This document shows, one piece after another, positions 2,747-26,553 of a stretch of DNA of 47,373 nt. This DNA is from Patescibacteria group bacterium. Lineage in GTDB: Bacteria; Patescibacteriota; Microgenomatia; PFEM01; JAHIFH01. The DNA lies in contig JAHIFH010000012.1 of NCBI GenBank assembly GCA_018900995.1, positions 1 to 47,373 of the forward strand. The letters run 5' to 3'. The notes under the pieces are model-generated. The model was given only the letters and a program-made list of their open reading frames with translations, made no database searches and was not told the DNA's origin. Within the stretch, counting starts at the first letter, position 1. Every line of letters starts with the position of its first letter. Made by a program: the position numbers and the translations under genes.

Positions 2747-4231
2747 TCATCTTCTGCCGAAATCAGCTAAATGCCCTAAGACTTTTCTGCCTGCCATTGA
2801 AATAAACTTTACATCGTCCAAACTTCTTATACTAATCAACCTTTTAATAATAAACCTTGGATCAAAAGCAACTTTATAAATTTCCTGAACTAACCTCTTC
2901 AGTTCGCCATCTTTCATTTTGGTTTTCAAAACAGGCCTACGCATATCATATCTATCCCAATTTAAAGTCTTCAGCCAGTCTTTCTCCTTAGCCTCCCTAA
3001 ACAGAGCTGTACCTGGATACGGGATTATTAAAGTAGCCTGCAATGTATCGGCATAGCCTTTTTTTAACAGCTCTCTTCCAAGCCTAACAGTTTCCAGAAC
3101 ATCCCTTCTGGTTTCCCATGGAAAACCCAGCATTATTGTGAGATGAGGAGATAATCCAGCTTTTTTTGCTTTCTTACAAGAATCTGTTATTTGCTCTACT
3201 TTCAAGTTTTTATTAATCTTGTCCAAAGTTTCCTGATTAGCTGATTCCAAACCAAACAAAAGCATCCTAAAACCTGCTTTTTTCATTAGTTTATAGTCAT
3301 CAAAACTACAAGCACCAAAACGCATATTACAACTAAAATCAATTTTTTTATTATAGCCCCTTTTTATCATTAGCCTACAGAATTTTCTCAGCTGATCCCC
3401 AACAATAAAGGTCCCGGTGTCATCAAACACAGTTTTAACTCCATAGCTGTCTATTAAAAAGCCAATCTCATCAATGAGCAACTCTGGTTTCCTAGCTCTC
3501 CAAGTGGGAAAGAGAGTCGTCCAACTACAAAAAGTGCAACCACCTTTTATCCTGTGCCAACAATCCCGCCCGGCCATGATGTAGGTACCGGGAGTTCGTT
3601 TATAATTTCCATTCTCATAAGCATAAAGTCTCCACTTAGTCAGTTCCCTATTAATAAAAGGCAACTTATTTAAATCATGATTTAAAAGAAATTTACCAGT
3701 GTTTTTAACTTTCTTTCCCTCCCGATAATAAATACCTGGTTCAAGTTTAGAAGTTTGAAGTTTGGAGTTTGGAGTTTGGAGTGAATTACAAAGATTAAGC
3801 AATAGAAAATCATAATCTCCGCCGGTTAAAACAAAATCAACTTTGGATTTTTCAAATGATTCCTCGGGCAGGGCAGTAACATGGTCACCAACGAGAACAG
3901 TGATCAGTGACCAGTGATCAGTGACCAGTGATTTTAGGTCATTAATAATTTCCCAATGTTTTTTAACCACTGGGGTTTTGGTTTCCATAACAATTAAATC
4001 CGGCTTTTCTCTTATTATCTCCTTTAACCATTTTTGATAGCTCCATTTTTCGGCAATACCGTCAAGCCAAACAACATCGTAGCCGGCATTTTTTAATAAA
4101 GTTGCCGCATAAGCAGGTACCATCGGATAAATATAAGTCGGATTATGAAAAACCTGATATTGCCGGTTTTGAGATAGCAAGGGTGTCCCTTTAATATCGT
4201 CAAATGGGGGATAGGTTATTGCTATTTTCAT
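2747..4231 (-). CDS. B12-binding-domain radical SAM enzyme (class B-like)
   Basis: N-terminal flavodoxin-like region (DLIVMETKTPVV...VLVGDHVTALPE). Cys cluster GRDCWHRIKGGCTFCSW. LLFGLESANQETL and TIMLGFPWET motifs match the radical SAM barrel. Confidence 0.8.
   Translation of the reverse strand: MKIAITYPPFDDIKGTPLLSQNRQYQVFHNPTYIYPMVPAYAATLLKNAGYDVVWLDGIAEKWSYQKWLKEIIREKPDLIVMETKTPVVKKHWEIINDLKSLVTDHWSLITVLVGDHVTALPEESFEKSKVDFVLTGGDYDFLLLNLCNSLQTPNSKLQTSKLEPGIYYREGKKVKNTGKFLLNHDLNKLPFINRELTKWRLYAYENGNYKRTPGTYIMAGRDCWHRIKGGCTFCSWTTLFPTWRARKPELLIDEIGFLIDSYGVKTVFDDTGTFIVGDQLRKFCRLMIKRGYNKKIDFSCNMRFGACSFDDYKLMKKAGFRMLLFGLESANQETLDKINKNLKVEQITDSCKKAKKAGLSPHLTIMLGFPWETRRDVLETVRLGRELLKKGYADTLQATLIIPYPGTALFREAKEKDWLKTLNWDRYDMRRPVLKTKMKDGELKRLVQEIYKVAFDPRFIIKRLISIRSLDDVKFISMAGRKVLGHLADFGRR
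3744..3783. repeat. Heptamer tandem array AGTTTGR (one 8-mer plus four 7-mers plus a partial unit)
   Basis: AGTTT starts at 3744, 3752, 3759, 3766 and 3773. It is translated on the minus strand as LQTPNSKLQTSKLE inside the radical SAM ORF. Confidence 0.85.
3898..3932. repeat. Heptamer tandem array CAGTGAY x5
   Basis: cagtgat cagtgac cagtgat cagtgac cagtgat read directly. It encodes SLVTDHWSLIT in the B12-binding domain. Confidence 0.9.
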
Positions 4232-4255
4232 TTTAGATTTTTTCTTTACTCCTCT

Positions 4256-5008: not shown

Positions 5009-5059
5009 CTTTTTTTTCGATCTGGATTATTTTATCATAGATTCACGAGGAAGCTCTCA

Positions 5060-6178
5060 ATGAACTGCAAGTCGGTCTTTTTTAGGATTTACGGTTTTTT
5101 TCTCATCTTCATCCTGGCAGTCAATATTGGTCGAGGATTTTTATCGTTATGGTTCATTCAAAATGGATTCGGTTTTCCCCAAATAACCCTTTTTTATTTC
5201 ATTGCTTTCCTTGTTCCCTCACTTATTCTCTTATTCGCTAAAAAATTTTCTACTGCTAGAAGTTTTACTATTGCTTTAATTTCAGAAATTCTTTTGATGT
5301 TATCTGTTTTTCATTTTCATCACCCTCTTCAGCTATATTTTGCCGGAGTTTTCGCCGGCGCAACCGTCGTTTTCTTTTACATCACCTACAATACTCTCTA
5401 TTTTGAAAATACCCCAAAAGATAAAAGAGCTTTTAGTTCCAGCCTTTTTACTCTTGCCGGTCCATTTTTGGGAATTCTTGTTCCTCTTGCCGTAGGTTTT
5501 TTCGGACAAAAATGGGGGCTTTCATCAATCTTCTTGGTTGCTGCTTCAATTTATCTAATCAACCTTTATCTCATCAGATTTTTGCCTAAAATTGAAATCG
5601 AATGTAATCTTCGCCAAAACTTGATAAAAACCAGTCGAATAAATTTTTTGCTCCTTCTTGAAGGAATTAAAGAATCGGTATATTTTGCCGCCATTCCCAT
5701 TTTCACCCTCTTTTTTATCAACCAGCCTCTCCCCTATGGCGCTTATTTTAGTTATCTTGCTTTTATTTCCATCGCTGCCACTATGTTTTTTGGATTCCTT
5801 TCTGACAAATTTAAAAAAAGAGCCATCATTCTTTACCCTGTAACCATCATGGTAGCTTTGACCATCATTGCCCTCGGTTTCGCCCAAAGTCTTTCCTGGT
5901 GGACAATAATCTCAGGCGCCCTAGGCTTCCTTTTGGTTCTCAATGGTACTTTTGTCACCACTTTAGTCCTGGATCAGGTGTCTGAGGTTAAAGTAGGAAT
6001 GATCAGTAGAGAATTTTTACTGGGTGTTGGTAGGACAATTGGTATGGCTATTGTCTTTGCCTCTCTCGCCTTATTTAATTCACCAAAACTAGCTCTAATT
6101 CTTATTGGTTCACTATATCTTCTCTTCCCTCTAACTGTCTATGTCAAGAAAATTTATCAAAAAGGATTATTGTCTTAA
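5060..6178 (+). CDS. Polytopic membrane transporter, MFS-like
   Basis: About 11-12 hydrophobic helices with a central loop. Assignment is weak and made by topology only. Confidence 0.45.
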   Translation: MNCKSVFFRIYGFFLIFILAVNIGRGFLSLWFIQNGFGFPQITLFYFIAFLVPSLILLFAKKFSTARSFTIALISEILLMLSVFHFHHPLQLYFAGVFAGATVVFFYITYNTLYFENTPKDKRAFSSSLFTLAGPFLGILVPLAVGFFGQKWGLSSIFLVAASIYLINLYLIRFLPKIEIECNLRQNLIKTSRINFLLLLEGIKESVYFAAIPIFTLFFINQPLPYGAYFSYLAFISIAATMFFGFLSDKFKKRAIILYPVTIMVALTIIALGFAQSLSWWTIISGALGFLLVLNGTFVTTLVLDQVSEVKVGMISREFLLGVGRTIGMAIVFASLALFNSPKLALILIGSLYLLFPLTVYVKKIYQKGLLS

Positions 6179-7195
6179 TTTTGGGGAGAAAAATCCTTTG
6201 ATAAACAAAACTCCATAAACAAGATGGGTAACAAAAATCGAAGGCACTATCAATAAGGCAAGTCTGAGATTTCTTTCTTTAAGATAAACTTCGGCAACTG
6301 TAATCAAGAGTAATAGGAGGTAAACAAAAACTGAAAATAAATATAAAAGAAAAAGAGGAATTGAAATTATACAAAGCTGAAAAATCTCCAGGACAAAGAT
6401 TAAAAGCGGTCCCCCAAAAAGTCCCAAAACAAAAATCGTCGGCATAAAATAACCAATTCGGAAAGAAGTCTCCGGTAAAATCCTAGCAAAATGACCTCGA
6501 TGAATGGCATAGCGAGAGATTTGTTTTAAATGGGGTCCAAAAACTTCTCGACGATGATGATAAACAAGAACTTTTGGGTCATAAATAATTTTCTTTTTCA
6601 ATTTTTTGGTTAAAAGCAGACATAAGCGCGTGTCCTCGCCTGGCCAGAAATGGGAATCAAATCCGCCAACTTTGACAAAGTCTCTTTTTCTCACTAAAAA
6701 ATTAACGGTTGGGTAGTCGTCGATTTCTTTTCTAGGATAAATTGCACAACGATAAGTCCCTGCCCCACTGCTCCCCAACCAAGTCGACCAAACATATCCC
6801 GAGGCTTTTTGACGGAGATTATTATGCGGCGGGGTTAAACTGGGTCCACAAACAGCAGCAATTGGCTGGTGACTAGTGGCTGGTGGTTGGTGACTGGTGA
6901 AAATTTTAACCGCATTTTTCAGCCAATTTTTGTCAGGATAGGAGTCATCATCTAAAAAAGCGAGAATTTCACCCTTTGCTTTTCTAGCGCCGATATCTCT
7001 TTTATCCGCTGGTCCGGTTTTTGGATAAGTAGGGATAATTCTGGTTTGGGGAAATCTTTCTTTTGTTTTCTTATCAGGGAGGATGATAATCTCGAAGTTT
7101 TTATAAGTCTGTTTTAGAATCGCGGGAATCGTTTCTTGACGAAGATAATCATTTATTTTTTTAACAGGAATAATGATAGAAACCTTAGGAGTCAT
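6167..7195 (-). CDS. GT2 glycosyltransferase with C-terminal transmembrane helices
   Basis: VSIIIPVKKINDYLRQETIPAILKQTYKNFEIIILPD and FLDDDSYP (DxD). The C-terminal ~100 aa are hydrophobic. Confidence 0.85.
   Translation of the reverse strand: MTPKVSIIIPVKKINDYLRQETIPAILKQTYKNFEIIILPDKKTKERFPQTRIIPTYPKTGPADKRDIGARKAKGEILAFLDDDSYPDKNWLKNAVKIFTSHQPPATSHQPIAAVCGPSLTPPHNNLRQKASGYVWSTWLGSSGAGTYRCAIYPRKEIDDYPTVNFLVRKRDFVKVGGFDSHFWPGEDTRLCLLLTKKLKKKIIYDPKVLVYHHRREVFGPHLKQISRYAIHRGHFARILPETSFRIGYFMPTIFVLGLFGGPLLIFVLEIFQLCIISIPLFLLYLFSVFVYLLLLLITVAEVYLKERNLRLALLIVPSIFVTHLVYGVLFIKGFFSPKLRQ
6864..6898. repeat. Heptamer tandem array GRYTRGT x5
   Basis: ggctggt gactagt ggctggt ggttggt gactggt. It encodes TSHQPPATSHQP. 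Confidence 0.9.
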
Positions 7196-7200
7196 TAAAA

Positions 7201-8004
7201 TTAGCTAATATCGGCTTTAAAATTTAAATCCGGATCATGGCGCCATTTCCGTTTATTATGACCGTCGTAATAGCGAAGAATTTTGAGGCGGTAAAAAACT
7301 GCCAAAGTATCTACAAGCATACCCCAAATTGTCCCAGTCCCTATGCTGGAATATTTTAGTCTTCTGGCATCCATTTCTACCGGACCATCATGAATTTTTT
7401 CAAATCCCAACCTCTTGGCTACTGACAACATCTCAATATCAAAAGCAAAATTTTTCACTAAAAGACGCGGCAAAACCTTTTCCAGAGCTTTCCTTTTGAA
7501 AATCTTCAAACCTCGCTGGCTATCAGTAATCCGCAATCCAAAAAGCCATTTAGTCAGGACATGATACCCCCAACTTAAAATTTTCCTTTTCAGGGGATAC
7601 CCATAAACTTTAGAAGCTGAGTGGCGAATGGAGCCAACGATAATATCGGAACCATACCAAATCATATGTTCCAAGAGTATCGATAAACCATTGGGGTCAA
7701 TATCCATTCCGGCATCAATAAAGGCAATTAGATCCCCTTTTGTTTTTGCCATCCCGTATCGGACTGCATGTCCTTTACCTTTATTTTCCTTGTAGCCAAT
7801 GACCTTTAGTTTTTTAGATTTAACCTTCTTAGCATTTTCATAAGTTTTATCTACTCTTCCATCAATTACACAAATAATTTCATAATCATAACGAATCTGC
7901 TTGAGGACTTCCTCAATCCGCTGAAGGTCTTTTTTAATTGTCTTTTCCTGCTTATAGGCGGGAACGATAACTGAAAGTAGGTGCTTTTTTGGTTTTGTTA
8001 TCAC
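7201..8004 (-). CDS. GT2, polyprenol-phosphate sugar synthase-like (DPM1/GtrB type)
   Basis: LSVIVPAYKQEKTI..., ENKGKGHAVRYGMAKTKGDLIAFIDAG. It overlaps the upstream flippase ORF by 53 nt, so the start is uncertain. Confidence 0.75.
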   Translation of the reverse strand: MITKPKKHLLSVIVPAYKQEKTIKKDLQRIEEVLKQIRYDYEIICVIDGRVDKTYENAKKVKSKKLKVIGYKENKGKGHAVRYGMAKTKGDLIAFIDAGMDIDPNGLSILLEHMIWYGSDIIVGSIRHSASKVYGYPLKRKILSWGYHVLTKWLFGLRITDSQRGLKIFKRKALEKVLPRLLVKNFAFDIEMLSVAKRLGFEKIHDGPVEMDARRLKYSSIGTGTIWGMLVDTLAVFYRLKILRYYDGHNKRKWRHDPDLNFKADIS

Positions 8005-9256
8005 TATAAATATAATATACCAAAAGGCTGATGAGGAGCAAGCTTAGAATAGAAATTGAGACCCAAACTATTTGAGATAAGCTTTGGTGGAAAAGAAAAA
8101 TCAAAATAACTTGGGCAGCAGCAGCAATAACTGGTAAGACAACCACTTTAACTTTTTTTACCGAAAGATAAAAGTTTACTAACAGAGAAGAAAGTGAATA
8201 CAGACTTAAGAATATAGCGAAAAGAAAGAGATAAGGTGAAGCCGAAAGATATTGGCGGCCATAAAGGATATTAATCATTAACTTGGGAAAAAGAAAATAA
8301 ATTCCACTAATCCCCAAACAAGTAAGCAAAACCAAACCCAGGCTTAAACTGAGAAGATTAATGTATTTTTTCCCGTTAGCGTGTCGCTCAGAAACCATCG
8401 GGAACATTACCATAATTATCGGGCTTGAGGCAAAGAAAATGATTTTGCCTAAAGTCGCTAAAGCGGCATAAAAGCCCGCTTCCTGAGCTGGTAAAAAATG
8501 TCTTACCAATACAATGTCAGTCGTATAAAGCGAGGTAAAAGCAAGAGTGGAAAAAAACACTGGAACAGCATATCTAACAATCTCCTGGCTGTTTATCGTT
8601 TTCTTTCTTTCTTTCTTTCTTTCAAATAAACGCCTAACAAAAAAAGCTGTCAATAAATAGCCAATCAGCGCACTTACTAAAAAGGCTAAAACTGCACCTA
8701 AAACTTTCCATCCCAAATAAACTAATAAAACAGCTATTCCAAGTTTTAAGACGACTTGAACTGCTCCTGAAATTGACATTAAACCGAAACGAAGGAATCC
8801 CTGAAGGGTAGTAACGTTAACCATAAAATAGACTCCAACTAAGCTCGATGTTATTATTAACAGCAAAGGTAAAATCGATTTAAGATGAAGAAATGAGGCA
8901 ATTAATGGAGAGATTATTATTAATAACAGAAACCCAGCTAAACTAAAAATTACTAACTTTTTATTTAACCAAGAATAAAAATAAAAAATTGTCCCAAAAT
9001 CCTTTTTCCCTCGTAAGGCAGAGACATATTTAACTACTACCAAACTTAAACTATTAACGGGAATGCTGATTAGATAACTGAAGGAAATCAACGAAGCAAG
9101 AATGCCATAATCAATGGGTCCCAACATCCGCCCCATCAAAAGATGATAAAGATAGTTGCCAAAATTGGCAAACATATTACCGGCAAATAAAATAGCACTA
9201 CCAGCAATCAGCTGATTTTCGATTAATTTCAGTAATTTTAGTTTAAGAGGGTTCAT
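7952..9256 (-). CDS. Wzx/MOP-superfamily oligosaccharide flippase
   Basis: About 12-14 TM helices. The N-terminal AGSAILFAGNMFANFGNYLYHLLMGRMLGPIDYG is typical of polysaccharide-export flippases. Confidence 0.7.
   Translation of the reverse strand: MNPLKLKLLKLIENQLIAGSAILFAGNMFANFGNYLYHLLMGRMLGPIDYGILASLISFSYLISIPVNSLSLVVVKYVSALRGKKDFGTIFYFYSWLNKKLVIFSLAGFLLLIIISPLIASFLHLKSILPLLLIITSSLVGVYFMVNVTTLQGFLRFGLMSISGAVQVVLKLGIAVLLVYLGWKVLGAVLAFLVSALIGYLLTAFFVRRLFERKKERKKTINSQEIVRYAVPVFFSTLAFTSLYTTDIVLVRHFLPAQEAGFYAALATLGKIIFFASSPIIMVMFPMVSERHANGKKYINLLSLSLGLVLLTCLGISGIYFLFPKLMINILYGRQYLSASPYLFLFAIFLSLYSLSSLLVNFYLSVKKVKVVVLPVIAAAAQVILIFLFHQSLSQIVWVSISILSLLLISLLVYYIYSDNKTKKAPTFSYRSRL
8600..8623. repeat. 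Tetranucleotide repeat (TTTC)x6
   Basis: Read directly. On the minus strand it is (GAAA)6, encoding ERKKERKK in the central loop of the flippase. Confidence 0.95.
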
Positions 9257-9270
9257 TTAAAAAAGAGTTA

Positions 9271-10584
9271 CTAAGCCAGCCAGTATCCTCGAGTGAAAAA
9301 TAATAGAGAAATAATTAATAGTGGAATAGCGATGAGCGGATACAAGATTCTCACCCACCTATATTTCTCTGCCCAAATAGCAAGAAGAATAAAGCCAGGA
9401 AAAAGAACCAGGGCATAGCGAGGTAAAGAGGAAAAAGTGCCAGTCAGAGTAGGGGTGATATAAGCTAAAGCCATAAAAGTAACATAAGGATACCAGCGCC
9501 GAAGCCAGGCAAAGAGACTTAGAACTAAAAAGGCAGTGCCACTGAAAAATTCCAAAATAACAACAAAGTAAGTAGGAGTTAACTTTTCACAGGTCACGAG
9601 CATCTTTAGGTAACGCCAAAAAACTTGATAAAGAAGTACTAATTTAGTCGCTGTTCTCCCGGCCCCAAAATAAGGTTGGACGTGAAGAAACAAAAGTGGA
9701 TCCTGGAATTTGGTAGCTAAATAGGACATATAACCAATTAATCCCAAAGGGATAAATAAAAGCGGGATTAAAGTGATCGGTGATCGGTGAGTGGTGGTCG
9801 GTTTTTTTCTGGTCGCTGGTGGCTGGTGGCTGGTAGCTCCTTGCTGCCACCATTCAACAAGCAAGGCTGGAAAGAGAAAAACTCCTGGCAAACGAGTTGA
9901 TGTCGCTAACAAGCCGAAAATACCTGCTAGCCACCAGTGTTTGGTTCTGGCAAAATAAAAACTGGCGAGAACGAGCATTAGGAACAATGACTCGGTATAA
10001 ACGGCGGCAAAGTAAAAAGCCGTCGGGAAAATTAGCAAATAGACAACTGCTCTTTTGGCTATACTTTTTTGATAGTCCAGTCTGATCAATTTATAGAAAA
10101 TTAATAGAGCAAAAAATAAACTAACGGTTGAGACAAACAAACCGGCCACCAAATCACGACCATAAAAAAAGGGGGTTAGAGCCTTGATTAACTTCGGATA
10201 AAGAGGAAAAAAGGCCTGCTGATAAATTCCATATCCCTTTCGGGCAATATCCAAATAATGAATTCCATCAAAATTAGCTCGACTCCAAAGCCAACGGGGG
10301 CTAACCACTTGCTTCTCGGTATAAAGATATTCCATAGTGGTGGGAAAATACTGTTCGCCAAGAACAATTAGACCACCAATCAATACTTGCCAGATGACAA
10401 AAACTGACAGAATAAAAGGAAGAGTTTTTTTACTACACCGGCTGCAAGGCGACACTAGTCGCCGCAGTCCCGCACTAGAACGGTGCGGGATAGCACAGCC
10501 CCGTACGAAAACTCTCTCAGCTTTAGCGCTGGAGGCGTTTTCATTTTTTCGTAATAATTTCCTGATATACTTTGTAAGTTTCAT
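9271..10584 (-). CDS. PIG-V-like (GT76-type) polytopic mannosyltransferase
   Basis: NFDGIHYLDIARKGYG...QAFFPLYP matches the PIG-V family signature. Multiple TM helices. The N-terminal 55 aa are atypical and GC-rich. Confidence 0.65.
   Translation of the reverse strand: MKLTKYIRKLLRKNENASSAKAERVFVRGCAIPHRSSAGLRRLVSPCSRCSKKTLPFILSVFVIWQVLIGGLIVLGEQYFPTTMEYLYTEKQVVSPRWLWSRANFDGIHYLDIARKGYGIYQQAFFPLYPKLIKALTPFFYGRDLVAGLFVSTVSLFFALLIFYKLIRLDYQKSIAKRAVVYLLIFPTAFYFAAVYTESLFLMLVLASFYFARTKHWWLAGIFGLLATSTRLPGVFLFPALLVEWWQQGATSHQPPATRKKPTTTHRSPITLIPLLFIPLGLIGYMSYLATKFQDPLLFLHVQPYFGAGRTATKLVLLYQVFWRYLKMLVTCEKLTPTYFVVILEFFSGTAFLVLSLFAWLRRWYPYVTFMALAYITPTLTGTFSSLPRYALVLFPGFILLAIWAEKYRWVRILYPLIAIPLLIISLLFFTRGYWLA
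9773..9838. repeat. Composite element: 4 heptamers, GTTTTTTTCT, 4 heptamers (66 nt)
   Basis: gtgatcg gtgatcg gtgagtg gtggtcg gtttttttct ggtcgct ggtggct ggtggct ggtagct. It encodes ATSHQPPATRKKPTTTHRSPIT. Confidence 0.9.
10442..10490. other. GC-rich twin hairpin element
   Basis: Hairpin A: CTGC-aa-GGCGAC ACTA GTCGCC-GCAG (10442-10467). Hairpin B: TCCCGCAC TAGAACG GTGCGGGA (10468-10490). Both were verified base by base. Confidence 0.8.
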
Positions 10585-11587
10585 TGGCTACCTTTTCCCA
10601 ACTAAATTTTTTCGCTTGCTTTAATCCCTTTTCTATTAAATCCTCTCTTAAATCTTCGTCTTCAATGACAACTGTCAAACCATTAGCAATATCATTTATA
10701 TCATAAGGGTCAACGAAAACTGCTGCCTTGCCTGCGATTTCCGGCAAACTCGCCTTTTTGCTCGTTACTACTGGAGTTCCGCAAGCCATCGCTTCGAGAA
10801 CCGGCAAGCCAAAGCCTTCGTAAAATGACGGCTGACAATAAACGGTGGCTAAATTATAAAGGACGACTAAATCTTTATCGGGAACAAAACCAGTGAGGAT
10901 GATTGATGATTTGCAGTAATCCTGCAACCAAACTAAATCGCGGTTTTCAGGATGGCTTCGGTCAATTTTTCTCTCAACTGCCTGTTTGCCGACAATAACT
11001 AAGGGTATTTTTGCTTTCTCGCAAGCCTTGACCAGGCCGCGAATATTTTTATTGTAATTAACGTCACCGACGTATAAAACAAACTTACTGGGAAGATGAT
11101 ATTTTTGTTTTACAGTAACCAGTGATTGGTGACTAGTAATCGGTTTAAAAATATCAGCCGCCGCCAAATAAACAACATGAATTTTTTCTTTTGAATAATC
11201 TAAATATTTAGTGATGTCTTTTTTAGAGTTTTTAGAATCGGTAATGACACCACTCGCTGTTCTTAGAGCCAGCTTTTGGGCTCTAAATTTCAACTTACCC
11301 TTTATTCCAGGCGGATAATGTTCTGGAAAAACTAGCGGCGTAGTGTCGTGAATGGTGACTACCGTCTTTTTCTTTCTCATTAAAGGTAAAGTCATAAAAA
11401 ACAAATCAAAATAAGAATAATGAATTAAGTCGCAATCTTGAGGAATTTCTCCTTCTTCCACTAAAACCAACTCAAAATCAGCCCTTTTGAAAGACTGCAA
11501 AGCCTTAACAAGATTCTTAGTATAGGCGCCAATGCCCCGAAATTGATGGGCTGACTTTAATGGAGAAATATCAATGGCAACTTTCAT
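10541..11587 (-). CDS. GT4 family (GT-B) glycosyltransferase
   Basis: PSFYEGFGLPVLEAMACGTPVVTS is the Glycos_transf_1 E-x7-E region. Confidence 0.9.
   Translation of the reverse strand: MKVAIDISPLKSAHQFRGIGAYTKNLVKALQSFKRADFELVLVEEGEIPQDCDLIHYSYFDLFFMTLPLMRKKKTVVTIHDTTPLVFPEHYPPGIKGKLKFRAQKLALRTASGVITDSKNSKKDITKYLDYSKEKIHVVYLAAADIFKPITSHQSLVTVKQKYHLPSKFVLYVGDVNYNKNIRGLVKACEKAKIPLVIVGKQAVERKIDRSHPENRDLVWLQDYCKSSIILTGFVPDKDLVVLYNLATVYCQPSFYEGFGLPVLEAMACGTPVVTSKKASLPEIAGKAAVFVDPYDINDIANGLTVVIEDEDLREDLIEKGLKQAKKFSWEKVANETYKVYQEIITKK
11115..11142. repeat. Heptamer tandem array GTRAYYR x4
   Basis: gtaacca gtgattg gtgacta gtaatcg, then gttt. It encodes KPITSHQSLVT. Confidence 0.85.
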
Positions 11588-16991: not shown

Positions 16992-18653
16992 TTATCTTTC
17001 TAAAATCTCAAAAGCCGAACTACCATCAAGAAAATCAATTGTTTTTATTTTACTCCATCCCTCCGGATAATTCCCAGGGCTAGTAATCAGCAAACTCCTG
17101 GCTCCTGACTCCTGGCTCCTGACTCCTGAAATTTCCCAGTCATTAACAAAGACAAACTTATCAAAAGAATCAACCCAATACCAATCGGTCTTAAAATAAC
17201 GGATTAAATAAGGATCGCTGCGATATTTTTCGGGATCCCATTTCAAATAAAAAAGCAAAAATTCATGGGGTTCACCATACTTCTTGGTAATGAAAATTTT
17301 ATCGTAGTCATTGTAGTGAGACTGAATGTAATTAGCCACTTCTTTATAGCCATATTGCCAAGACCATGAGTAGTCTTGGCGATAGGAGCCGAAATAGGCG
17401 TTTAAATAACTAAAAAACGAAATGAAAATTGTTAAAAGAAAAGCAACTAACAAAATTTGCCCTGTTTTTTTTCTTTTTTGAATGAAAAGAGTCAGCTGAA
17501 AAACGCCAAGAGCGCTTAAAATCTGAGGCAAAGGAAGGATGGTCGAAGCTCTGATAACATGACTCCCTCCGCGAGTCAACGCCGCTGGGATTGGCGCCAG
17601 AAGAAGCCAAAGTAAAACCGCCTGGGCAAATTTTTTCTTTTTAATCAATACCCAAAAGACTAAAAAGCCAAGCCCGAGGTAGAAAAAAGGCATCTCAACC
17701 GGATATAAAACCCCCCTTCCTGGAACACTGAACTGATACTGAGTTCCTCCCTTGAAAAAAAGAAACCGAGGAGAAAAATAGCCAAGATAATTAATAAAGA
17801 AATGGGTTAAAAAATATGTTGGTCGATTATAAACTAAACGAGTTAAAAATTCGGGTAGATTTGATTGAAGCCGGTCCTCAATAATCTGATTAATTGCCCC
17901 TTCATCAATAATTGAAACCCAGTGGGCTCTGGCTCGGCCCTCAGAGCCTAGGAGAATAGGTACTAGGGGAACAAAAAAGACTAAAAGCAAAAGGATCGCT
18001 ACTATCAGATAAATCCTTTTCTTTTGCCACCATCTTTTCCATTCATCTTGATAAAGAAAAGCTAAGGCAACAATTAACAAGGGAACGAAAATCCGAGCAT
18101 TATGATAAGAATAAACTGAAATTCCTAACGCCAAAGCCGCCAAGGGTAAAAAGAACGCTCTTTTCTTTCGATGAAAGAAAAGAGCCATTCCTGTGGTAAT
18201 AAAAAATAAACTAACGTTTGACTGAACCACAAATCTCGAAGGAAACAAAGTCCAGGGGCTAATTGCCACCAGCAAAGCCGCAAGAAGACTAATTCCAACA
18301 CTAAATCCTATCCCCTGAGCAAGAAAAAAACAAGCAAGGATGGTTAAAGCCCCCATAAAAGCATGTGGAGCCCGAATTCCAAACTCGTTTAAACCAAATA
18401 ACGAAATGCTAGGAATAGTAATGTAAAGATTAACTGGCAAGGGATAATCACCGTAGGCACGAAAATTAGCCAGGGGCATAAATTGACCCCACTCATCCTT
18501 ACCGTTTTTCAAAATTGAATAAGCGTTATAGCCGTGACTGACTTCATCCCAATTTAAAGCCGGGGGCATGGTGGCTAAATTGAAAAACCTTAAGATTAAA
18601 CCTAAAAAGAAGATTAAAATAATCAGAGTGAAATGAATTTTTCTCTTAGCCAT
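16992..18653 (-). CDS. GT39/PMT_2-type polytopic glycosyltransferase, paralogue 3
   Basis: LNWDEVSHGYNAYSILKNGKDEWGQFMPL and the C-terminal EPHEFLLFYLKWDPEKYR. Confidence 0.85.
   Translation of the reverse strand: MAKRKIHFTLIILIFFLGLILRFFNLATMPPALNWDEVSHGYNAYSILKNGKDEWGQFMPLANFRAYGDYPLPVNLYITIPSISLFGLNEFGIRAPHAFMGALTILACFFLAQGIGFSVGISLLAALLVAISPWTLFPSRFVVQSNVSLFFITTGMALFFHRKKRAFFLPLAALALGISVYSYHNARIFVPLLIVALAFLYQDEWKRWWQKKRIYLIVAILLLLVFFVPLVPILLGSEGRARAHWVSIIDEGAINQIIEDRLQSNLPEFLTRLVYNRPTYFLTHFFINYLGYFSPRFLFFKGGTQYQFSVPGRGVLYPVEMPFFYLGLGFLVFWVLIKKKKFAQAVLLWLLLAPIPAALTRGGSHVIRASTILPLPQILSALGVFQLTLFIQKRKKTGQILLVAFLLTIFISFFSYLNAYFGSYRQDYSWSWQYGYKEVANYIQSHYNDYDKIFITKKYGEPHEFLLFYLKWDPEKYRSDPYLIRYFKTDWYWVDSFDKFVFVNDWEISGVRSQESGARSLLITSPGNYPEGWSKIKTIDFLDGSSAFEILER
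17095..17129. repeat. Heptamer tandem array CTCCTGR x5
   Basis: ctcctgg ctcctga ctcctgg ctcctga ctcctga. It encodes SGVRSQESGARS. Confidence 0.9.
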
Positions 18654-18662
18654 TTTGCCACT

Positions 18663-20550: not shown

Positions 20551-20574
20551 TGAATTATTACCCTTCTTATATTG

Positions 20575-20664
20575 TATAATACTCGAAGAGAATTTTCGAG
20601 GTGTAAAACACCGCTGAATAATACTCGAAGAGGATTATCGAGGCACGAAGTGCCGCTGTATAAT
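20575..20664. repeat. 42-bp tandem repeat x2 plus a third TATAAT, in the divergent intergenic hub
   Basis: Unit 1 (20575-20616): TATAATACTCGAAGAGAATTTTCGAGGTGTAAAACACCGCTG. Unit 2 (20617-20658): AATAATACTCGAAGAGGATTATCGAGGCACGAAGTGCCGCTG. TATAAT follows at 20659-20664. Confidence 0.85.
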
Positions 20665-20669
20665 AAACC

Positions 20670-22343
20670 ATGATGAAAGGAAAATTGGGCCGGTTAATAA
20701 TCCTAGGAATTTTGGTTGCTCTATGTCTTGGCAATTTTATTCTCGGTATTAAGCTTAATTATCCACCTTATGAAAACGAGCTGGTCACTCTAATTAACAC
20801 CAGATTAACATTTAACAATTTGGGATTGGATCAACAATCCCGAGCAACAATTCTCAATAATATTTTAGGTGAAGAGCAATATTTTTCTGAAAAAATTTTC
20901 CCCTTAAGAAGCTGGCTTCAAGCTTTGGGCGGGACTAAAGGCATTTTTAACCTGAGGTTGGTCAACTTTATTATTTTTATTATGACCCTTATTCTCTTTT
21001 ATTTTTTCTTGAAGCAAGTTGGATGGACATCACCAATCACCCTTTTTCCCCTTATTTCAATTACAATCTCTCCTCTATCACTTTCTCTCTGGTTATTTAG
21101 ACCAAAAATTTGTTTAACCATTTTTCTTCTTATTTCTTGGCTACTTATCTGGTCTAGAAAAGAAAGAAAATTCATTCATGACATTTTTTGGGTAATAAAT
21201 ACCCTTCTTCTCTTTTACTCATCGTTTCAAGGATTAATAATTGGCCTTTTACTCTTGACTCCTATAACGCTGTTTAGATTCTACCGAGCCAAAAAATACT
21301 CTATTTTTTTGACTTTAGCCATCTTAGTGCTCTTCTTAATAATTCCTATTATTAAAAATCCTCTTTTTAAAAAAAGCTTAACTCAGTCAGCACCTTTTAA
21401 TGCCGTCAATCCAACTCAAGTCGGGCAGCAAATAACCGAGAGATTTACTCAAGAAGATGGTCTCCAGGTAAGGGTCATTTTTCCTCTTTTGTTCAGAAGA
21501 ATGGGATACAATAAAATTTTCTTCGCCTATCGAAATTTCACCAAGGAAGTTCTAAATTTTTTTGATCTAGAGACACTCTTTTTCCAAGAAGTTCATCCAA
21601 TGCAACAAAAATCTGAGGTCACATTTTATTGGCCCGAAATTTTTGTCTTTCTTGTTGGCATTTTTTGGTTTATTAAAAGCGGTTTTGGAAAAAAACAAAA
21701 AAATTTACTATTTCTAATTTTTTTGTCATTCATTTTTCATCTTTTTACTCAAAACGACACATTTGCCGGAAGATACGCCTTAACTCTCTTTACTCTGGCT
21801 ATTGTTATTGGAATAGGTTTTAAACAAATGCCACGAGGCTTATCTTTGATTATTCTTCCTCTTATTATCTGGGCAATTTATATCAACACTTATGATATCC
21901 TTAAAAGACCCCTTTTTTGGTATGACAATCGCCCCTATGTCTATGCTCAAGGAATAAAAGCAATTAAGATGATAGAAACAGAATCAGTCTCATACAAAAA
22001 TATTTATTTAACTTCTCTTGTTGGCAATCCAAAAATTTACTATTTTTACTATTTCTCACCCCAACCTGAACTCTTTCTCAAAGATCCCCTCTTCATTGAA
22101 GATAAGGGTAAAATTGTCTATTTTAACAGCTTTGACCTCGTCAGTAATCTTCCTCAAAAAAATTCACTTTATTTTGGCTTTCTGGGAGAGTTCATCGGTC
22201 CCAATTCTTTAAACGAATTTTCTGAGCAGGACATCAATAAAATAGAACCAATCGGGCTCAAGATAGAAAAGGTTTGGAAACTCGATAATACAATTGCTTT
22301 TCGCTACAGTGATTATTTTGTTCTTGCCTCATTGAAGGAATAA
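20670..22343 (+). CDS. Divergent GT39-like polytopic membrane paralogue lacking the DE/GYNAYS loop motif
   Basis: Same length class (557 aa) and a related C-terminal domain (KIYYFYYFSPQPELF). Loop 1 reads PPYENELVTLINT instead of xDExxxGYNAYS. Confidence 0.55.
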   Translation: MMKGKLGRLIILGILVALCLGNFILGIKLNYPPYENELVTLINTRLTFNNLGLDQQSRATILNNILGEEQYFSEKIFPLRSWLQALGGTKGIFNLRLVNFIIFIMTLILFYFFLKQVGWTSPITLFPLISITISPLSLSLWLFRPKICLTIFLLISWLLIWSRKERKFIHDIFWVINTLLLFYSSFQGLIIGLLLLTPITLFRFYRAKKYSIFLTLAILVLFLIIPIIKNPLFKKSLTQSAPFNAVNPTQVGQQITERFTQEDGLQVRVIFPLLFRRMGYNKIFFAYRNFTKEVLNFFDLETLFFQEVHPMQQKSEVTFYWPEIFVFLVGIFWFIKSGFGKKQKNLLFLIFLSFIFHLFTQNDTFAGRYALTLFTLAIVIGIGFKQMPRGLSLIILPLIIWAIYINTYDILKRPLFWYDNRPYVYAQGIKAIKMIETESVSYKNIYLTSLVGNPKIYYFYYFSPQPELFLKDPLFIEDKGKIVYFNSFDLVSNLPQKNSLYFGFLGEFIGPNSLNEFSEQDINKIEPIGLKIEKVWKLDNTIAFRYSDYFVLASLKE

Positions 22344-22351
22344 ATTAGAAA

Positions 22352-24025
22352 ATGAAAAAAACTCTAAAAATATTATTGGTAATTGGCGGATTATTAAGTA
22401 TCATCTTGACCTCTCTTTACTTGAGAATCTCCTGGTTGGAAATTTCCCCTCATACGGTTGGTTTCGATGAAGCTGCTTTAGGGTATAACGCCTATTCCCT
22501 TTTAAAAACTGGTAAAGATGAACACGGACGAGGCTACTCTATTTCTCTGGCTTCATTTAACGATTACAAGCCCGCCCTTTATGCTTACTTAAGTATGCCT
22601 TTCATTAAATATATGGGGTTGAACCAGACCTCAACCAGAATTGTCTCTGGTATAGTTGGTACTGCCACCTTATTGTTTATATTTCTTATTAGCTACAATT
22701 TCTTTTCTAGAAATCTACTAATAGCCTTTTTCACCTTATTAATTGCTGCCATTCAACCATGGAATCTCCATTATTCCCGCACTGCCTTTGAGTCTAACTT
22801 GTGTACTACTTTTTTTACCGCTGGCGTTCTTTTAATTTTAATTAATCGAGGAATCAAAAGTGAGCTAGCGGCGGTTTTCTTTTTTGTCCTCTCTATGTTT
22901 AGTTATCACCAAGCTCGATTAGCCGCACCAATATTCCTCTTGTTTTATCTCCTCATTAAAATTAGCAAAAAAAGAGGGTTTAAATTCTCATTAAATAACT
23001 TAATCAAGCTTGTAATTCCATTAATTGTTCTTTTGATTATCACTCTACCTATTTGGCTAAACTTAAAAGAAGGCTTAATTCTTGCCCGCCTAAGGCAAGA
23101 AAGCGCCCTAAAGAGACTGTATCCTTATTCTCCACCTGAACTCGTCAATCCCCAAAACATCTGGCTCACGTTTCCCGCCCACCCTCTCTACTATTTGCTG
23201 GCGAATTTTGTTGGTCATTTTTTTGCCTACTTTTCACCAATCAACTTAGGTTTAAAACTTTTTCATTGGGTGAGAAACTCTCCTCAAAATATTGCCACCT
23301 TCAGCATGATTGGTTGGGGAGAATGTCTCTTTTTTCTTCTTGGTCTCTTCTATTTAATTAAACACTGGCAGAAAAGAAACAACATGATTTTTCTCGCCTG
23401 GATAATTAGTGGAATTACCCCAGCGGTCGTTACTTGGAACTGGTTTCATCCCCTAAGAAGTTTAGCTATTTATCCAGCCATAACTATTATTTGTGTGTTG
23501 GGAATGGTCATTATTTTTAAACTTATGCCTCGGCCAATGAGGATAATTACTCTCATAGGCTTCACAATTTTATTCTTGATGCAGGCTTCTTATGTCATTA
23601 ATAATGAATTGGTCTACAATGTTTATGAATCTCACGGCGAATACCAACCTGGAGGATTTAAAGAGGGCGTTCCTGAATTAGCCAAGATCCAAGACGACTA
23701 TGATAAAGTCATTATTGAAACTCCCCACGCCCAGGGCTATATTTTCTTCCTCTTTTACCAATCTTTTCCCCCAGAAATTCTTCAACAATTTACCAAGAAT
23801 CGCAAGCTCCCAGGTACTGAAGGCGATCTCAGCTTTAATTTCTATAAATATGAATTCAGAAAGATATATTGGCCAGAAGACAAAAAATTGAGACGGACGA
23901 TTTTTTGGGGTTCTAATCTAAGCCTACCAATTGATGAGATTTCAAAAGAGCCAGGTGTTAAAATGATAAGGGATTATCATCATGTTGCGGGTAATCCCGC
24001 GGCAGTAATGGTTGTCAAAGATTAA
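22352..24025 (+). CDS. GT39/PMT_2-type polytopic glycosyltransferase, paralogue 4
   Basis: VGFDEAALGYNAYSLLKTGKDEHGRGYSISLASFNDYKPALYAY and the C-terminal QGYIFFLFYQSFPPEILQ. Confidence 0.85.
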   Translation: MKKTLKILLVIGGLLSIILTSLYLRISWLEISPHTVGFDEAALGYNAYSLLKTGKDEHGRGYSISLASFNDYKPALYAYLSMPFIKYMGLNQTSTRIVSGIVGTATLLFIFLISYNFFSRNLLIAFFTLLIAAIQPWNLHYSRTAFESNLCTTFFTAGVLLILINRGIKSELAAVFFFVLSMFSYHQARLAAPIFLLFYLLIKISKKRGFKFSLNNLIKLVIPLIVLLIITLPIWLNLKEGLILARLRQESALKRLYPYSPPELVNPQNIWLTFPAHPLYYLLANFVGHFFAYFSPINLGLKLFHWVRNSPQNIATFSMIGWGECLFFLLGLFYLIKHWQKRNNMIFLAWIISGITPAVVTWNWFHPLRSLAIYPAITIICVLGMVIIFKLMPRPMRIITLIGFTILFLMQASYVINNELVYNVYESHGEYQPGGFKEGVPELAKIQDDYDKVIIETPHAQGYIFFLFYQSFPPEILQQFTKNRKLPGTEGDLSFNFYKYEFRKIYWPEDKKLRRTIFWGSNLSLPIDEISKEPGVKMIRDYHHVAGNPAAVMVVKD

Positions 24026-25724
24026 AGTGGCTAAAATAAGATTTTTCCGTCCATTGATTCTTTTGTCTGTTATTGTAATTGTTGCTTTTTTACTCAGAAC
24101 GATTGCTCTTGATAAAAATCCTCCTGAACTTTTTGGTGATGAACTTGATGTTGGTTATCAAGCCTTTTCCCTGCTGAAAACCGCCCATGACTATAAGGGT
24201 CATTTTTTGCCAACTTATCTCCAAAGTTTTGCTGAGTGGCGAACACCATTTTTAATGTACGTCACCGCGCCTTTTGTTGCCATTTTTGGTCTCAATGAAT
24301 GGGGGGTAAGATTGCCTAGCGCTGTTTTTGGTTCCCTGACTATTGTTTTACTCTATTTTCTTGTTCTCCATTTGAGCAAGAATGAAAAACTTTCTTTGCT
24401 TTCTGCTTTCTTTTTAACTATTTCTCCCTGGCATATACAATACAGCCGGGCGGCTTTTGAAGTAGCTTTAATGCTCTTTTTAATAGTTGGTGGCCTTTTG
24501 GCTTTTTTTCAAGCAGGACAAAAAGGGAGTTTTAAGATGGGTGTCTTGGCTGGAGTTCTTTTTGCCTTATCTCTTTATTCTTACAACACCGCTAATGTTT
24601 TTGTTCCATTAATGATGATATTCACCACATTTTGTTTCTTCTCCTTTAAAAAACAAAAGAAGAAGATAATGGCTGTTTGGTTTATATTTATAATCATAAT
24701 TATTCCCCTGATTTACAATATCGTCTTTGGCCATGCCGCTACTCGCTATAGTCAATTTTCTATTTTCAATGATCAAGAAACTGTCAGAAGAATTAATTCA
24801 ATGAGGTCTTACCCAGGTACTAACCCCATCTTGGAACAAGTCTTTCACAATAAACCAATCGAATGGTCTAAAAAAATAATTCAAAACTACGCTACCGCCT
24901 TCTCCCCTCAATTTCTCTTTATTCATGGCGATGTCACCTTCCGCCATTCTCTTCATGAGATAGGTCAGATTCTTTGGTTCCAACTACCTTTGATTTTGTT
25001 AGGACTCTACTGGGTTGTTAAAAATTTCCGTCTTAAACAAAATCTTTTTTGGCTAAGCTGGCTTCTAATTGCCCCAATTCCTGCCAGTTTAACTATCGAT
25101 GGAGGTTATCATGCAAGTCGACTAATCTTAATGGTTGTCCCTCTTTCTGTCTTATCAGCTTACGGAGGATTGTTAATTATTGAAAAGTTAATTAGTTTTA
25201 GGAAGAAATCAAGTGTATTATTTGGACTTCTCTTAATTCCAATTCTCTTTATTCCTTTGATGGAATTTCTCCATTACCAGCATTATTATTGGAAACATTA
25301 TCCCATTGACTCCTGGCGCTGGTGGCATTACGGTTACAAAGAGGCAATGACTTCCTTAATCTCCCTGGAGAAAGATTTCAATCAAGTTCTCATTGAAACA
25401 ACTTATGAACCTGCTCTAATTAGATATATTTTTTGGAAAAAGTACGACCCTCAAAAAATCTATCATTTGGATGACCAATTAAAAGAAAATGCAGTTGAAG
25501 GGCTAACTGGCTTTTGTCTTGACGAAAAAGTCTGTTTTGTTAATTTAAGGGGGGACCTCCGAAAAGAGCAAGTAAAAGGTAATACCCTTTACCTTATTTC
25601 TCAAGAGAAAAACATTCCTGGCGACTGGGATTGGTCCGAAAGCCCTCCTGACTGGGTTGAAGTCATCAAAACAATAAAAAATCCCTGGGGAGACCCAATC
25701 TTTTACTTGGTCACCGGCGTTTGA
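24012..25724 (+). CDS. GT39/PMT_2-type polytopic glycosyltransferase, paralogue 5
   Basis: LFGDELDVGYQAFSLLKTAHDYKGHFLP. The track start is TTG 24012; GTG 24027, just after the upstream stop, is an alternative. Confidence 0.8.
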   Translation: MSKIKVAKIRFFRPLILLSVIVIVAFLLRTIALDKNPPELFGDELDVGYQAFSLLKTAHDYKGHFLPTYLQSFAEWRTPFLMYVTAPFVAIFGLNEWGVRLPSAVFGSLTIVLLYFLVLHLSKNEKLSLLSAFFLTISPWHIQYSRAAFEVALMLFLIVGGLLAFFQAGQKGSFKMGVLAGVLFALSLYSYNTANVFVPLMMIFTTFCFFSFKKQKKKIMAVWFIFIIIIIPLIYNIVFGHAATRYSQFSIFNDQETVRRINSMRSYPGTNPILEQVFHNKPIEWSKKIIQNYATAFSPQFLFIHGDVTFRHSLHEIGQILWFQLPLILLGLYWVVKNFRLKQNLFWLSWLLIAPIPASLTIDGGYHASRLILMVVPLSVLSAYGGLLIIEKLISFRKKSSVLFGLLLIPILFIPLMEFLHYQHYYWKHYPIDSWRWWHYGYKEAMTSLISLEKDFNQVLIETTYEPALIRYIFWKKYDPQKIYHLDDQLKENAVEGLTGFCLDEKVCFVNLRGDLRKEQVKGNTLYLISQEKNIPGDWDWSESPPDWVEVIKTIKNPWGDPIFYLVTGV

Positions 25725-26553
25725 AAAATCTTCGCCATTTTTGCCCCAGCCAAATAATTGAAGTTAATAGATAATATTTGACTAAACTATTATATTTTTT
25801 GCTGCTCTCCACTAGCCATTGATGGGTAATTTCGGGCATTTCTCTACCCGCCGCTCCATGGTGGTGGAAAACCTTAGCCGAAGGTAAATAATAAACATTA
25901 AGCCCTGCTTTTTTAGCCCGGCGGCAATAATCTAAATCCTCAAAATAGAAAAAATATTTCTCATCAAATAAACCAACGTCTTTGATAACTTTTTTAGGAA
26001 TAAGCATCGCCGCTCCCGTAACGGCATCAACTTTAACTGCTTTTTTTGTTTGAGGAAAATATTTTTGGTAACTCCCTTCCTGTCCTAGCCAAAATTCTTT
26101 AATGGCTCTGATAAGAGAAGGAAAATGATAAACAGACGGCTGGATGGAACCGTCAAGATTAACTAGTTGCAAGCCAATAATTGCTAGAGGGTGATTTTCG
26201 GCAAATTCAACTGCTTCTTTCAAAGTTTCTTTTTGTATCTGGGTGTCGGAATTAAGCAAAAGAATAAATTTCCCTTTCGCTTTTTTGATACCTTTATTAA
26301 CCGCTCCAGCAAATCCCCAGTTTTGGTCAAGGAAAATAGTTTGAATCGTTCTATTTTTAGCGACTTTCTTGAGATAATTAACACTGCTGTCAGTTGAACC
26401 ATTATCAACAACAATTATTTCAGTAACCAGTGATCGGTGATCGGTGATCGGTTTTTTTCTGGTTGCTAATGGCTGGTTACTAATCACTGATTCCAGGCAT
26501 TCTTTTAGTAATTTCTTCGTATTGTAATTAGGAATAATGATTGATAAATCCAT
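25711..26553 (-). CDS. GT2 glycosyltransferase
   Basis: LSIIIPNYNTKKLLKECLESV...EIIVVDNGSTDSS and LLLNSDT. Confidence 0.9.
   Translation of the reverse strand: MDLSIIIPNYNTKKLLKECLESVISNQPLATRKKPITDHRSLVTEIIVVDNGSTDSSVNYLKKVAKNRTIQTIFLDQNWGFAGAVNKGIKKAKGKFILLLNSDTQIQKETLKEAVEFAENHPLAIIGLQLVNLDGSIQPSVYHFPSLIRAIKEFWLGQEGSYQKYFPQTKKAVKVDAVTGAAMLIPKKVIKDVGLFDEKYFFYFEDLDYCRRAKKAGLNVYYLPSAKVFHHHGAAGREMPEITHQWLVESSKKYNSLVKYYLLTSIIWLGQKWRRFFKRR
26423..26488. repeat. Second copy of the composite heptamer element (66-nt span as delimited; outer units degenerate)
   Basis: gtaacca gtgatcg gtgatcg gtgatcg gtttttttct ggttgct aatggct ggttact aatcact. It encodes (VISNQ)PLATRKKPITDHRSLVT. Confidence 0.85.

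Follow-up and report, generated by a model that had tools for sequence, protein, structure and literature searches.

Cyanobacteria, Xanthomonas, Burkholderia and the Beggiatoaceae are long known to have heptanucleotide microsatellites, which were first described decades ago. They lie mostly between genes, are described as essentially intergenic, and their origin and function are unexplained. This paper deals with tandem arrays of 7-nt period (heptamer arrays) that lie inside glycosylation genes of contig JAHIFH010000012.1, from a Patescibacteria group bacterium. The whole stretch of 47,373 nt is termed the window. The arrays were pointed out in an earlier note made from the letters of the window, and the analysis reported here follows up that note.

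In many prokaryotes heptamers are the most abundant class of long simple sequence repeats (SSRs), which has been attributed to polymerase slippage, and long SSRs of 5–11 nt are taken to have no dedicated function but to reflect a tendency to expand when the polymerase slips (Mrazek 2007, as cited in PMC4679880 and PMC4692102). Heptamer repeats are chiefly intergenic and have hardly been studied (PMC4679880, PMC4692102). The arrays described here are like the long SSRs termed LSSR5-11 (Mrazek, Guo & Shah 2007) and the short tandemly repeated repetitive (STRR) sequences of cyanobacteria (Mazel et al. 1990; CCCCAGT, TTGGTCA, CAACAGT) in that the 7-nt period is dominant and abundance is specific to lineages. 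There is also an overlap of units: the reverse complements of STRR1 (ACTGGGG), STRR3 (ACTGTTG) and, rotated, STRR2 (ACCAATG) can be compared with ACTGGTC, ACTGTTA and ACCAATC here. Relatives keep the site but differ in the length and sequence of the array, as with the Xanthomonas heptamers (PMC4692102). The difference is that LSSR and STRR arrays are found mainly in intergenic DNA or in hypothetical open reading frames (ORFs), whereas the present arrays are in frame in conserved enzymes, in homologous loops across phyla.

The TAACTGA heptamers of Beggiatoaceae, cyanobacteria and Bacteroidetes (MacGregor 2015, PMC4679880) likewise occur as 2–6 direct copies, in an orientation constrained by stop codons. 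Their few intragenic copies are at the protein periphery and give LSVISYQ-type peptides (PMC4679880), to be compared with SVISNQ and SVISHQ here. They differ in having a single dominant unit just upstream of starts, for which a regulatory role has been suggested (PMC4679880). The window arrays, in contrast, comprise many units, are all intragenic and have no preference for 5′ untranslated regions.

The small dispersed repeats (SDRs) of Nostoc punctiforme, the subject of work by Elhai and colleagues in 2008, are reportedly dispersed elements of tens of nt associated with heptamer repeats. Like part of the arrays described here, they are said to have copies at non-homologous sites and filled and empty sites between relatives. 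They differ in sequence and phylum, and the copies seen here are all in frame in coding loops. The Rickettsia palindromic elements (RPEs) described by Ogata and colleagues in 2000 are said to be palindromes of 100–150 bp that lie in frame in Rickettsia genes, surface-exposed and with function kept. In-frame insertion is common to both, but the elements found here measure 28–66 nt, consist of tandem heptamers and have no consistent hairpin.

Two further systems are relevant. The contingency loci of Haemophilus, Neisseria and Campylobacter (Moxon et al.) are also non-triplet SSRs in surface-glycan genes. Classical contingency tracts are long and pure, usually with units of 1–5 nt, near the 5′ end and ON/OFF among isolates; at consensus level the arrays described here have none of these properties. 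The tandem repeats of Borgs (Schoelmerich et al. 2023, PMC9879509) are similarly fast-evolving and inside ORFs, where they create disordered protein segments. However, intragenic Borg units are multiples of 3 nt (PMC9879509), while a 7-nt unit, as here, fits the frame only through its super-period of 21 nt.

The arrays are of a known kind (heptanucleotide LSSR/STRR-type, and SDR-like). Two things are new: heptamers lie in frame within conserved enzymes, both in Patescibacteria and in other uncultured phyla, with Omnitrophota and Planctomycetia also among the groups concerned; and their position and register are kept from phylum to phylum while the units turn over concertedly. A literature search yielded no report of either, and none of heptamer arrays in the genomes of Patescibacteria (Candidate Phyla Radiation, CPR). 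The explanation considered probable here is that the arrays are heptanucleotide microsatellites, together with a small dispersed repeat family, tolerated in loops of coding sequence and not used for switching.

Period-7 arrays of the window

The window has a G+C content of 37% and is a nearly gap-free series of envelope-glycan genes, mostly on the minus strand. Tandem Repeats Finder (TRF), run on the whole window, gives period-7 repeats at positions 3743–3782, 3898–3932, 6863–6899, 9773–9802, 9809–9838, 14091–14122, 17094–17129 and 26430–26452, with 3–5.6 units and 76–93% matches at period 7. An autocorrelation scan shows six strict period-7 arrays against 0.005 expected (200 codon-block shuffles) and no strict array at periods 5, 6, 8–13 and 15. 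Period 4 gives one array (TTTC x6), and period 14 gives three that are identical to period-7 arrays. A stricter three-unit scan concurs that period 7 alone is enriched. Two of the arrays are perfect only at period 14 (x2.5). The period-7 observation is real and statistically robust. The features are as follows (units are given on the coding strand; structural positions are from AlphaFold2 (AF2) models).

3743–3783, minus strand: radical SAM site 2; heptamers CTCCAAA/CTTCAAA, about 5.6 units, encoding LQTPNSKLQTSK; protein loop 152–166, with homologous periodic loops in orthologues (TRF, scan)
3898–3932, minus strand: radical SAM site 1; TCACTGG/TCACTGA x5 with an exact 14-nt period, encoding SLVTDHWSLIT; protein loop 102–109, 81-nt class, register ACTNNNN (TRF, scan)
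6863–6899, minus strand: array in the GT2 gene 6167–7195; ACCAGCC-type heptamers encoding TSHQPPATSHQP (TRF)
9773–9838, minus strand: composite of 66 nt in the PIG-V-like gene; (ACCAGCC)n arm, AGAAAAAAACCG core and (CACCGAT)n arm, encoding ATSHQPPATRKKPTTTHRSPIT
11115–11142, minus strand: degenerate half-element in the GT4 gene; AAACCGATTACTAGTCACCAATCACTGGTTACTG, encoding KPITSHQSLVT (missed by TRF)
14091–14122, minus strand: array in the GT39-like gene 13606–15291; TTACTGG/TTACTAG, 4.6 units, encoding KKPLVTSYWLLVA (TRF, scan)
17094–17129, minus strand: array in the GT39-like gene 16992–18653; TCAGGAG/CCAGGAG x5 with an exact 14-nt period, encoding SGVRSQESGARS (TRF, scan)
26423–26488, minus strand: composite of 66 nt in the GT2 gene 25711–26553; AGTGATT/AGTAACC arm, AGAAAAAAACCG core and (GATCACC)3-GGTTACT arm

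The earlier note had listed eight strict arrays in seven glycosylation genes. The period of 7 is borne out, but the tract at 11115–11142 is not significant alone as a tandem array: its neighbouring units match at about 3/7. It is recognisable only through the 26423 element, with which it shares 70% identity, ungapped, over a 47-nt stretch including flanks (about 80% by eye across the 39-nt core). The units and peptides quoted in that note (TSHQPPATSHQP, SLVTDHWSLIT, SGVRSQESGARS and KKPITDHRSLVT) are all correct. Pfam places the host genes in the B12-binding/radical SAM, GT2 (two genes), GT4 (Glycos_transf_1) and PMT/PMT_2 (GT39-like, two genes) families, as the note had assigned them. The PIG-V-like gene has no Pfam match of its own; its orthologue in L001 has a weak PF04188 match (L numbers denote related loci, and P numbers proteins).

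Every array is inside an intact minus-strand ORF, and for six arrays the flanking sequence on either side can be aligned with orthologues; the in-frame location claimed from the letters is thus confirmed. Three heptamers make 21 nt, and each tract is translated as a loop peptide with a 7-residue period. Because 7 mod 3 = 1, consecutive units are read in consecutive frames. In the main unit family, YCACYRR (coding strand), one of these frames reads YRR as a codon. The stop-prone unit, every third one, carries TGG, CAA, CAG or CGA, and TGA/TAG variants are confined to the other two frames. Given this distribution, the tracts are not raw slippage products but have been filtered for uninterrupted translation. 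The proposal that orientation is fixed since the opposite strand is stop-rich was found to be only partly right: in the composites, the AGTGATT-type left arm is read in the stop-rich direction and stays open through variant units.

The AF2 model of the radical SAM protein (pTM 0.83) has helix 89–101, loop 102–109 and strand 110–114 at site 1, and helix 140–151, loop 152–166 and strand 167–171 at site 2. The composite 26423–26488 encodes residues 23–44 (VISNQPLATRKKPITDHRSLVT), the alpha1-beta2 loop of the 280-residue GT2. In its AF2 model (mean pLDDT 92.6) the composite is in loop 26–44, and the sole segment with pLDDT<50 (residues 32–38) falls within this loop. The array at 6863–6899 is an insertion of 7 aa (21 nt) relative to the L001 orthologue, and the composite 9773–9838 directly follows the EWWQQ motif of the PIG-V-like protein. 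The array at 17094–17129 encodes approximately residues 508–520 of 553, i.e. it is 35–45 residues before the C-terminus. The two models show location in loops, but not every array is an insertion into a short loop: those at 11115 and 14093 replace segments of equal length. The latter shows no net length gain relative to paralogues and, from its hydrophobic sequence, appears to overlap the start of a transmembrane helix.

All arrays are indeed in minus-strand genes, but 84% of the window coding sequence is on that strand (P=0.21), and strand bias was dismissed as a signal. The absence of arrays beyond 26.5 kb, in the right part of the window, is a mild departure from chance (P ~0.005, post hoc); a relative does have an array in the orthologue of the gene at 31940–32716. 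The described density of palindromes holds for GATC (7 in arrays vs 1.1 expected) and ACTAGT (3 vs 0.1 expected), but GGTNACC occurs 0 times in the window arrays and is not enriched. Over the whole window GATC (66 sites) and CTAG (78 sites) are under-represented, about 159 being expected from base composition, and 7 of the 66 GATC sites are inside the arrays, which total 333 nt. Rfam and tRNA scans of the window gave no matches, and the arrays are not explained by an RNA feature.

Radical SAM loops and the census of related loci

The radical SAM protein (window positions 2747–4231) has a B12-binding domain and is a member of an uncharacterised class-B subfamily; HpnJ and BchE score best among NCBIfam families, but far under the cut-offs. 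Bacterial and archaeal sequences (Methanocaldococcus, Bathyarchaeia, Micrarchaeota, Lachnospiraceae, Omnitrophota and others) are 57–63% identical, and more than 6,000 homologues were found. The enzyme is thus highly conserved and has been widely transferred, and no curated family scores above cut-off. In both Patescibacteria loci examined (the window and L001) the gene is located within a glycosylation cluster.

Orthologues from Archaea, Firmicutes, Spirochaetes and Dehalococcoidia have non-periodic loops of 8 and 7–8 residues at these two places. The same two loops are heptamer-periodic in the window, L001, Omnitrophota, Planctomycetia, Brocadiaceae, Nitrospinota and others. Of 189 alleles of site 1, 122 have a length of 72 nt and 40 a length of 81 nt; these two classes together account for 162. 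The 81-nt class (n=40) has a median period-7 match of 0.60, against 0.14–0.22 for periods 5, 6, 8 and 9. In nearly all genomes of this class ACT occupies unit positions 1–3, and the ACT register runs into the conserved Thr-Val-Leu codons (ACTGTT) at the 3′ boundary of the site. A register common to array and flank suggests an in-situ origin from flank sequence. Unit positions 4–7 vary between genomes but are uniform inside an array, e.g. ACTGGTC, ACTGTTA, ACTATCG and ACTTAGG. The loop DNA has 55% identity between genomes vs 67% for the flanks, yet units within one array have about 73%. These alleles show a coding microsatellite that keeps its position and evolves concertedly. Homogenisation at constant length could proceed via transient misalignment, conversion within the array or cycles of −1/+1 unit changes. 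The hundreds of radical SAM alleles form a natural comparative system for the creation, homogenisation and replacement of repeats by 7-nt slippage under frame constraint.

A stronger proposal would be that the radical SAM arrays are an ancient coding microsatellite, kept in the same two loops with the ACTNNNN register and the 81-nt length in at least 5 phyla and concertedly rewritten in each lineage. This is held to be rather unlikely. Point mutation should erase such short tracts, and their persistence, if the proposal were true, would imply an active site-directed process that writes or homogenises heptamers. Otherwise it would imply selection for the repeat state, e.g. because frameshifts switch a glycan-modifying enzyme at a frequency too low to show in consensus assemblies.

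A third variable insertion site was noted in the radical SAM protein, after GIYYR (alignment columns ~236–272, window residues ~170–176). Some orthologues have repeat-like inserts there (TSEVK...TSEVK, KRQTLSV, KNKNEKLQSKIENYS); the window protein has no insert.

Joint change of units is seen in another gene as well. Between L001 and L004 all four units of the PIG-V-like array are changed together (AAATTTC to GAAATTC) at constant length. Recurrence of arrays at one site is likewise not confined to the radical SAM gene: the loop after EWWQQ has arrays in the window, L001 and L097, and those of the orthologues differ from that of the window. The C-terminal GT39 site shows three unrelated units across the window, L209 and L216 (the units of the relatives being ACCCTAW and CAATATC).

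The earlier note had proposed tabulating coding and intergenic arrays in relatives. The window itself is almost without intergenic DNA, and 207 non-redundant related loci (2.0 Mb) were used for a census. It gives 113 period-7 arrays in total:

Non-ORF DNA: 25 arrays in 118 kb, 1 per 4.7 kb
ORFs except radical SAM: 25 arrays in ~1.6 Mb, 1 per 64 kb
Radical SAM ORFs: 63 arrays in 286 kb, 1 per 4.5 kb

Array density in these loci is thus about 14x higher in non-ORF DNA than in ordinary ORFs, as expected of a general mutational process filtered by selection and in agreement with the published view of long SSRs given above. Within 1.17 Mb of related loci there are 53 period-7 arrays vs 2–8 for periods 6 and 8–12. 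Density is lineage-specific: no array is present in 21 kb of the syntenic cluster of L214, a relative whose GT2 site is empty, and L216 has 5 arrays in 12 kb. Period-7 dominance, a density at least as high in non-coding as in coding DNA of the related loci, and homogenisation within arrays with turnover at a conserved site are all properties of heptanucleotide microsatellites of the LSSR/STRR type, and all three are found here.

Intergenic arrays of the relatives are often inverted pairs, with an array and its reverse complement 30–80 nt apart. Such pairs are located at L098 4745–4838, L068 4562–4724, and L017 3933–4052 and 7118–7237. The layout is that of the two arms of the GT2 composite, and is also as reported for Xanthomonas.

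The dispersed composite family

The composites at 9773–9838 and 26423–26488 are identical at 51 of 66 positions, ungapped (77%), and have the common core ACCAGAAAAAAACCGA, although their host genes are unrelated. Half-copies with the ends AAACC(G/A) and GGTTACTG are found in the GT4 (11115) and GT39 (14093) genes; these ends are common to four arrays. The shared CGGTTT junction that had been noted from the letters is therefore real for four arrays and reads AAACC(G/A) on the coding strand.

The GT2 composite is present in P0122–P0128 (77–85% identity) and in the more distant P0143, P0150, P0151, P0189 and P0197. The site is empty in P0129, P0130, P0133 and L211. The GT2 orthologue of L210 shows a precise 21-nt deletion in the composite. 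In L208 (85% GT2 protein identity) a second copy, of the right arm, is found in the orthologue of the window gene 31940–32716; the window gene has unrelated sequence of similar length at this position. The L208 contig terminates within this second copy, an example of how contigs can break within heptamer arrays. The GT2 orthologue of L216 (1051–1251), from another Patescibacteria genome, has two complete composites in tandem (AGTGRTY arm, A6, CACCAAT arm), which add about 22 residues relative to the window allele.

Similar copies at non-homologous sites in one genome, and filled and empty sites between relatives, are what is found for an SDR-like repeat. By analogy, the composite resembles the small dispersed repeats of Nostoc more closely than RPEs or repetitive extragenic palindromic (REP) elements. 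Copies in unrelated genes together with presence/absence polymorphism suggest that the family spreads by copy-paste, through gene conversion or other mobilisation.

Could all of the arrays be copies or remnants of one miniature mobile element of the Nostoc SDR or Rickettsia RPE kind, which inserts in frame and has the heptamers as internal structure? The 77% identity of the two composites, the common ends of four arrays, the filled and empty sites, the extra L208 copy with its contig break and the tandem composites of L216 are what such an element would produce. It is nevertheless an unlikely explanation of the whole set. The radical SAM arrays share their register with the flanking T-V-L codons in many phyla, which points to an origin in situ, and the units at 3744 (CTCCAAA) and 17095 (CAGGAGY) are unrelated to the family. 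DNA folding gives z-scores of −0.77 and −2.73 for the two strands at 26423 and of −1.35 and −0.57 at 9773, i.e. −0.6 to −2.7, and the PIG-V-like copy is without a hairpin. A hairpin or palindrome model of the composite (RPE/REP-like) was rejected on this ground. No target-site duplication was recognised, and domain scans of the window found no transposase or reverse transcriptase. A DNA search of 2 Mb of other loci yielded no composite copies beyond the window organism's own assemblies. Other protein families likewise gave no copies in a search with a duplicated 42-column profile of the element peptide, whose only hits were repeat-derived hypothetical proteins of Burkholderia pseudomallei at E>0.1; this was a weak search, which missed even the GT2 orthologues.

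Mechanism, switching and loop diversification

The combination considered probable above, microsatellites plus a dispersed family, would operate as follows. Tandem 7-nt copies would arise, and go on being homogenised, when replication slips or the template is transiently misaligned, with 7 nt as the preferred register. Within genes, selection would retain those alleles whose net length is a multiple of 3, whose stop-prone unit (1 in 3) has a stop-free variant, and whose arrays lie in structurally permissive surface loops. Two sub-populations may be distinguished. The first would consist of locus-specific arrays, of which the radical SAM pair is old, homologous across phyla at the same two loops and concertedly evolving. 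The second would be the lineage-specific dispersed family, with YCACYRR units around an A7 core in unrelated genes. Most likely the arrays have no switching function, and their visible effect is a fast turnover of loop sequence. Peptides such as SLVTDHW, TSHQPPA and SVISHQ would then be repeat-derived loop filler and not functional motifs. As its second choice the earlier note had named repeats that spread into coding sequence and are tolerated where they fall in loops. This is the one favoured here in its STRR-like form, but the arrays are not palindromic in the manner of RPEs, and some are ancient and positionally conserved.

Several points weigh against this explanation. With the 63 arrays of the radical SAM ORFs and a rough estimate of ~14 kb of loop DNA, the radical SAM loops have about 1 array per 220 nt, far denser than intergenic DNA, and tolerance alone is thus no explanation of these arrays. 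They need common ancestry with continuing homogenisation, or else site-specific hypermutability or selection; the first of these is the simplest account. The arrays in the GT4 gene (11115, vs L001) and the GT39 gene (14093, vs paralogues) replace equal-length segments, which simple slippage does not predict. At the C-terminal GT39 site the units are entirely unrelated in close relatives (~87% protein identity), and the change looks like replacement rather than drift. For the dispersed family no enzyme or mechanism of mobilisation was found in the window, there being no mobilising gene nearby. Lastly, the allele data come from consensus assemblies, and these would hide low-frequency out-of-frame subpopulations.

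The first choice of the earlier note was that the arrays are contingency loci, in which a tract that gains or loses one or two units goes out of frame and glycan genes are thereby switched. Such stochastic switching off and on would diversify the surface against phages or hosts. The unit length is indeed not a multiple of 3, the units lie inside ORFs, the hosts are envelope-glycan genes, and homogenised units imply ongoing slippage. A frameshift would come early in the GT2 gene at 25711 (residues 23–44 of 280) and in the radical SAM gene (residues 101–162 of 494), and would meet a stop within the array almost immediately. However, this explanation fails each available test and is considered quite improbable. 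The tracts are short and impure (3.3–5.6 units at 76–93% matches) and not the long, pure and hypermutable ones of contingency loci. Their unit variants are ordered for long-term translation. In the GT39 gene at 16992 a frameshift would come late, and arrays of the same kind are common in the non-coding DNA of relatives.

The comparison of alleles also argues against switching. Over 14,231 nt the assembly L007 (ENA) differs from the window by two substitutions and by no indel, and L218 (Logan) matches 12,192 nt exactly. The three independent assemblies of the window organism agree at each array covered, and six assemblies of a relative (L001–L006, the P0009 organism), from different samples, have identical array lengths. 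Length differences between relatives are 21 nt (the GT2 gene at 6167 vs L001; L210 vs other GT2 orthologues), 36 nt (the empty site of L211) and 6 nt (GT39 vs L209), all multiples of 3. In a metagenome collection, a degenerate pattern that flanks radical SAM site 1 and disregards the frame, ATGGARACNAARACNCCNGT N{61,91} GGNGAYCAYGTNAC, gave 120 matches, and all 120 are in frame. A less strict anchor gives 189 non-redundant alleles of site 1; none is out of frame, and about 27 have strong heptamer periodicity. The radical SAM gene of L028 is in frame at site 2. Thus ON/OFF alleles among close strains, the population signature that defines contingency loci, are absent at consensus level.

A selected in-frame diversification of loops, in which changes of ±21 nt and unit turnover vary the exposed loops of envelope enzymes as an evolvability device and not a switch, would fit the persistence of arrays with high within-array identity at the same loops across phyla, the 21-nt in-frame length variant and the different units at one site in close relatives, but is very doubtful, as site-1 length is strongly conserved at 72 or 81 nt, the loops belong to intracellular enzymes with no obvious reason for diversification, and non-coding DNA is equally or more array-rich.

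Three further observations were made in the window. The minus-strand gene 7952–9256 (a Polysacc_synt/Wzx-like flippase) has a perfect (GAAA)6 on the coding strand at 8600–8623, encoding ERKKERKK at residues 212–219. It is the sole non-heptamer SSR of the window, and none of the heptamer arrays is as near in unit size and purity to classical phase-variable tracts.

A 42-nt direct repeat (20576–20665; 2.1 copies, 79% identity) lies in the one intergenic gap of any size, just upstream of the plus-strand GT39-like gene at 20670. Each copy has a TATAAT-like sequence and short inverted repeats. The repeat may be a duplicated promoter or regulatory module.

Three plus-strand GT39-like paralogues (window 20670–25724) are missing from the syntenic region of L209 (858–3007), where the GT2 gene abuts a 415-aa gene. 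This indicates that a block of about 5 kb in the opposite orientation was either inserted in the window lineage or lost in L209.

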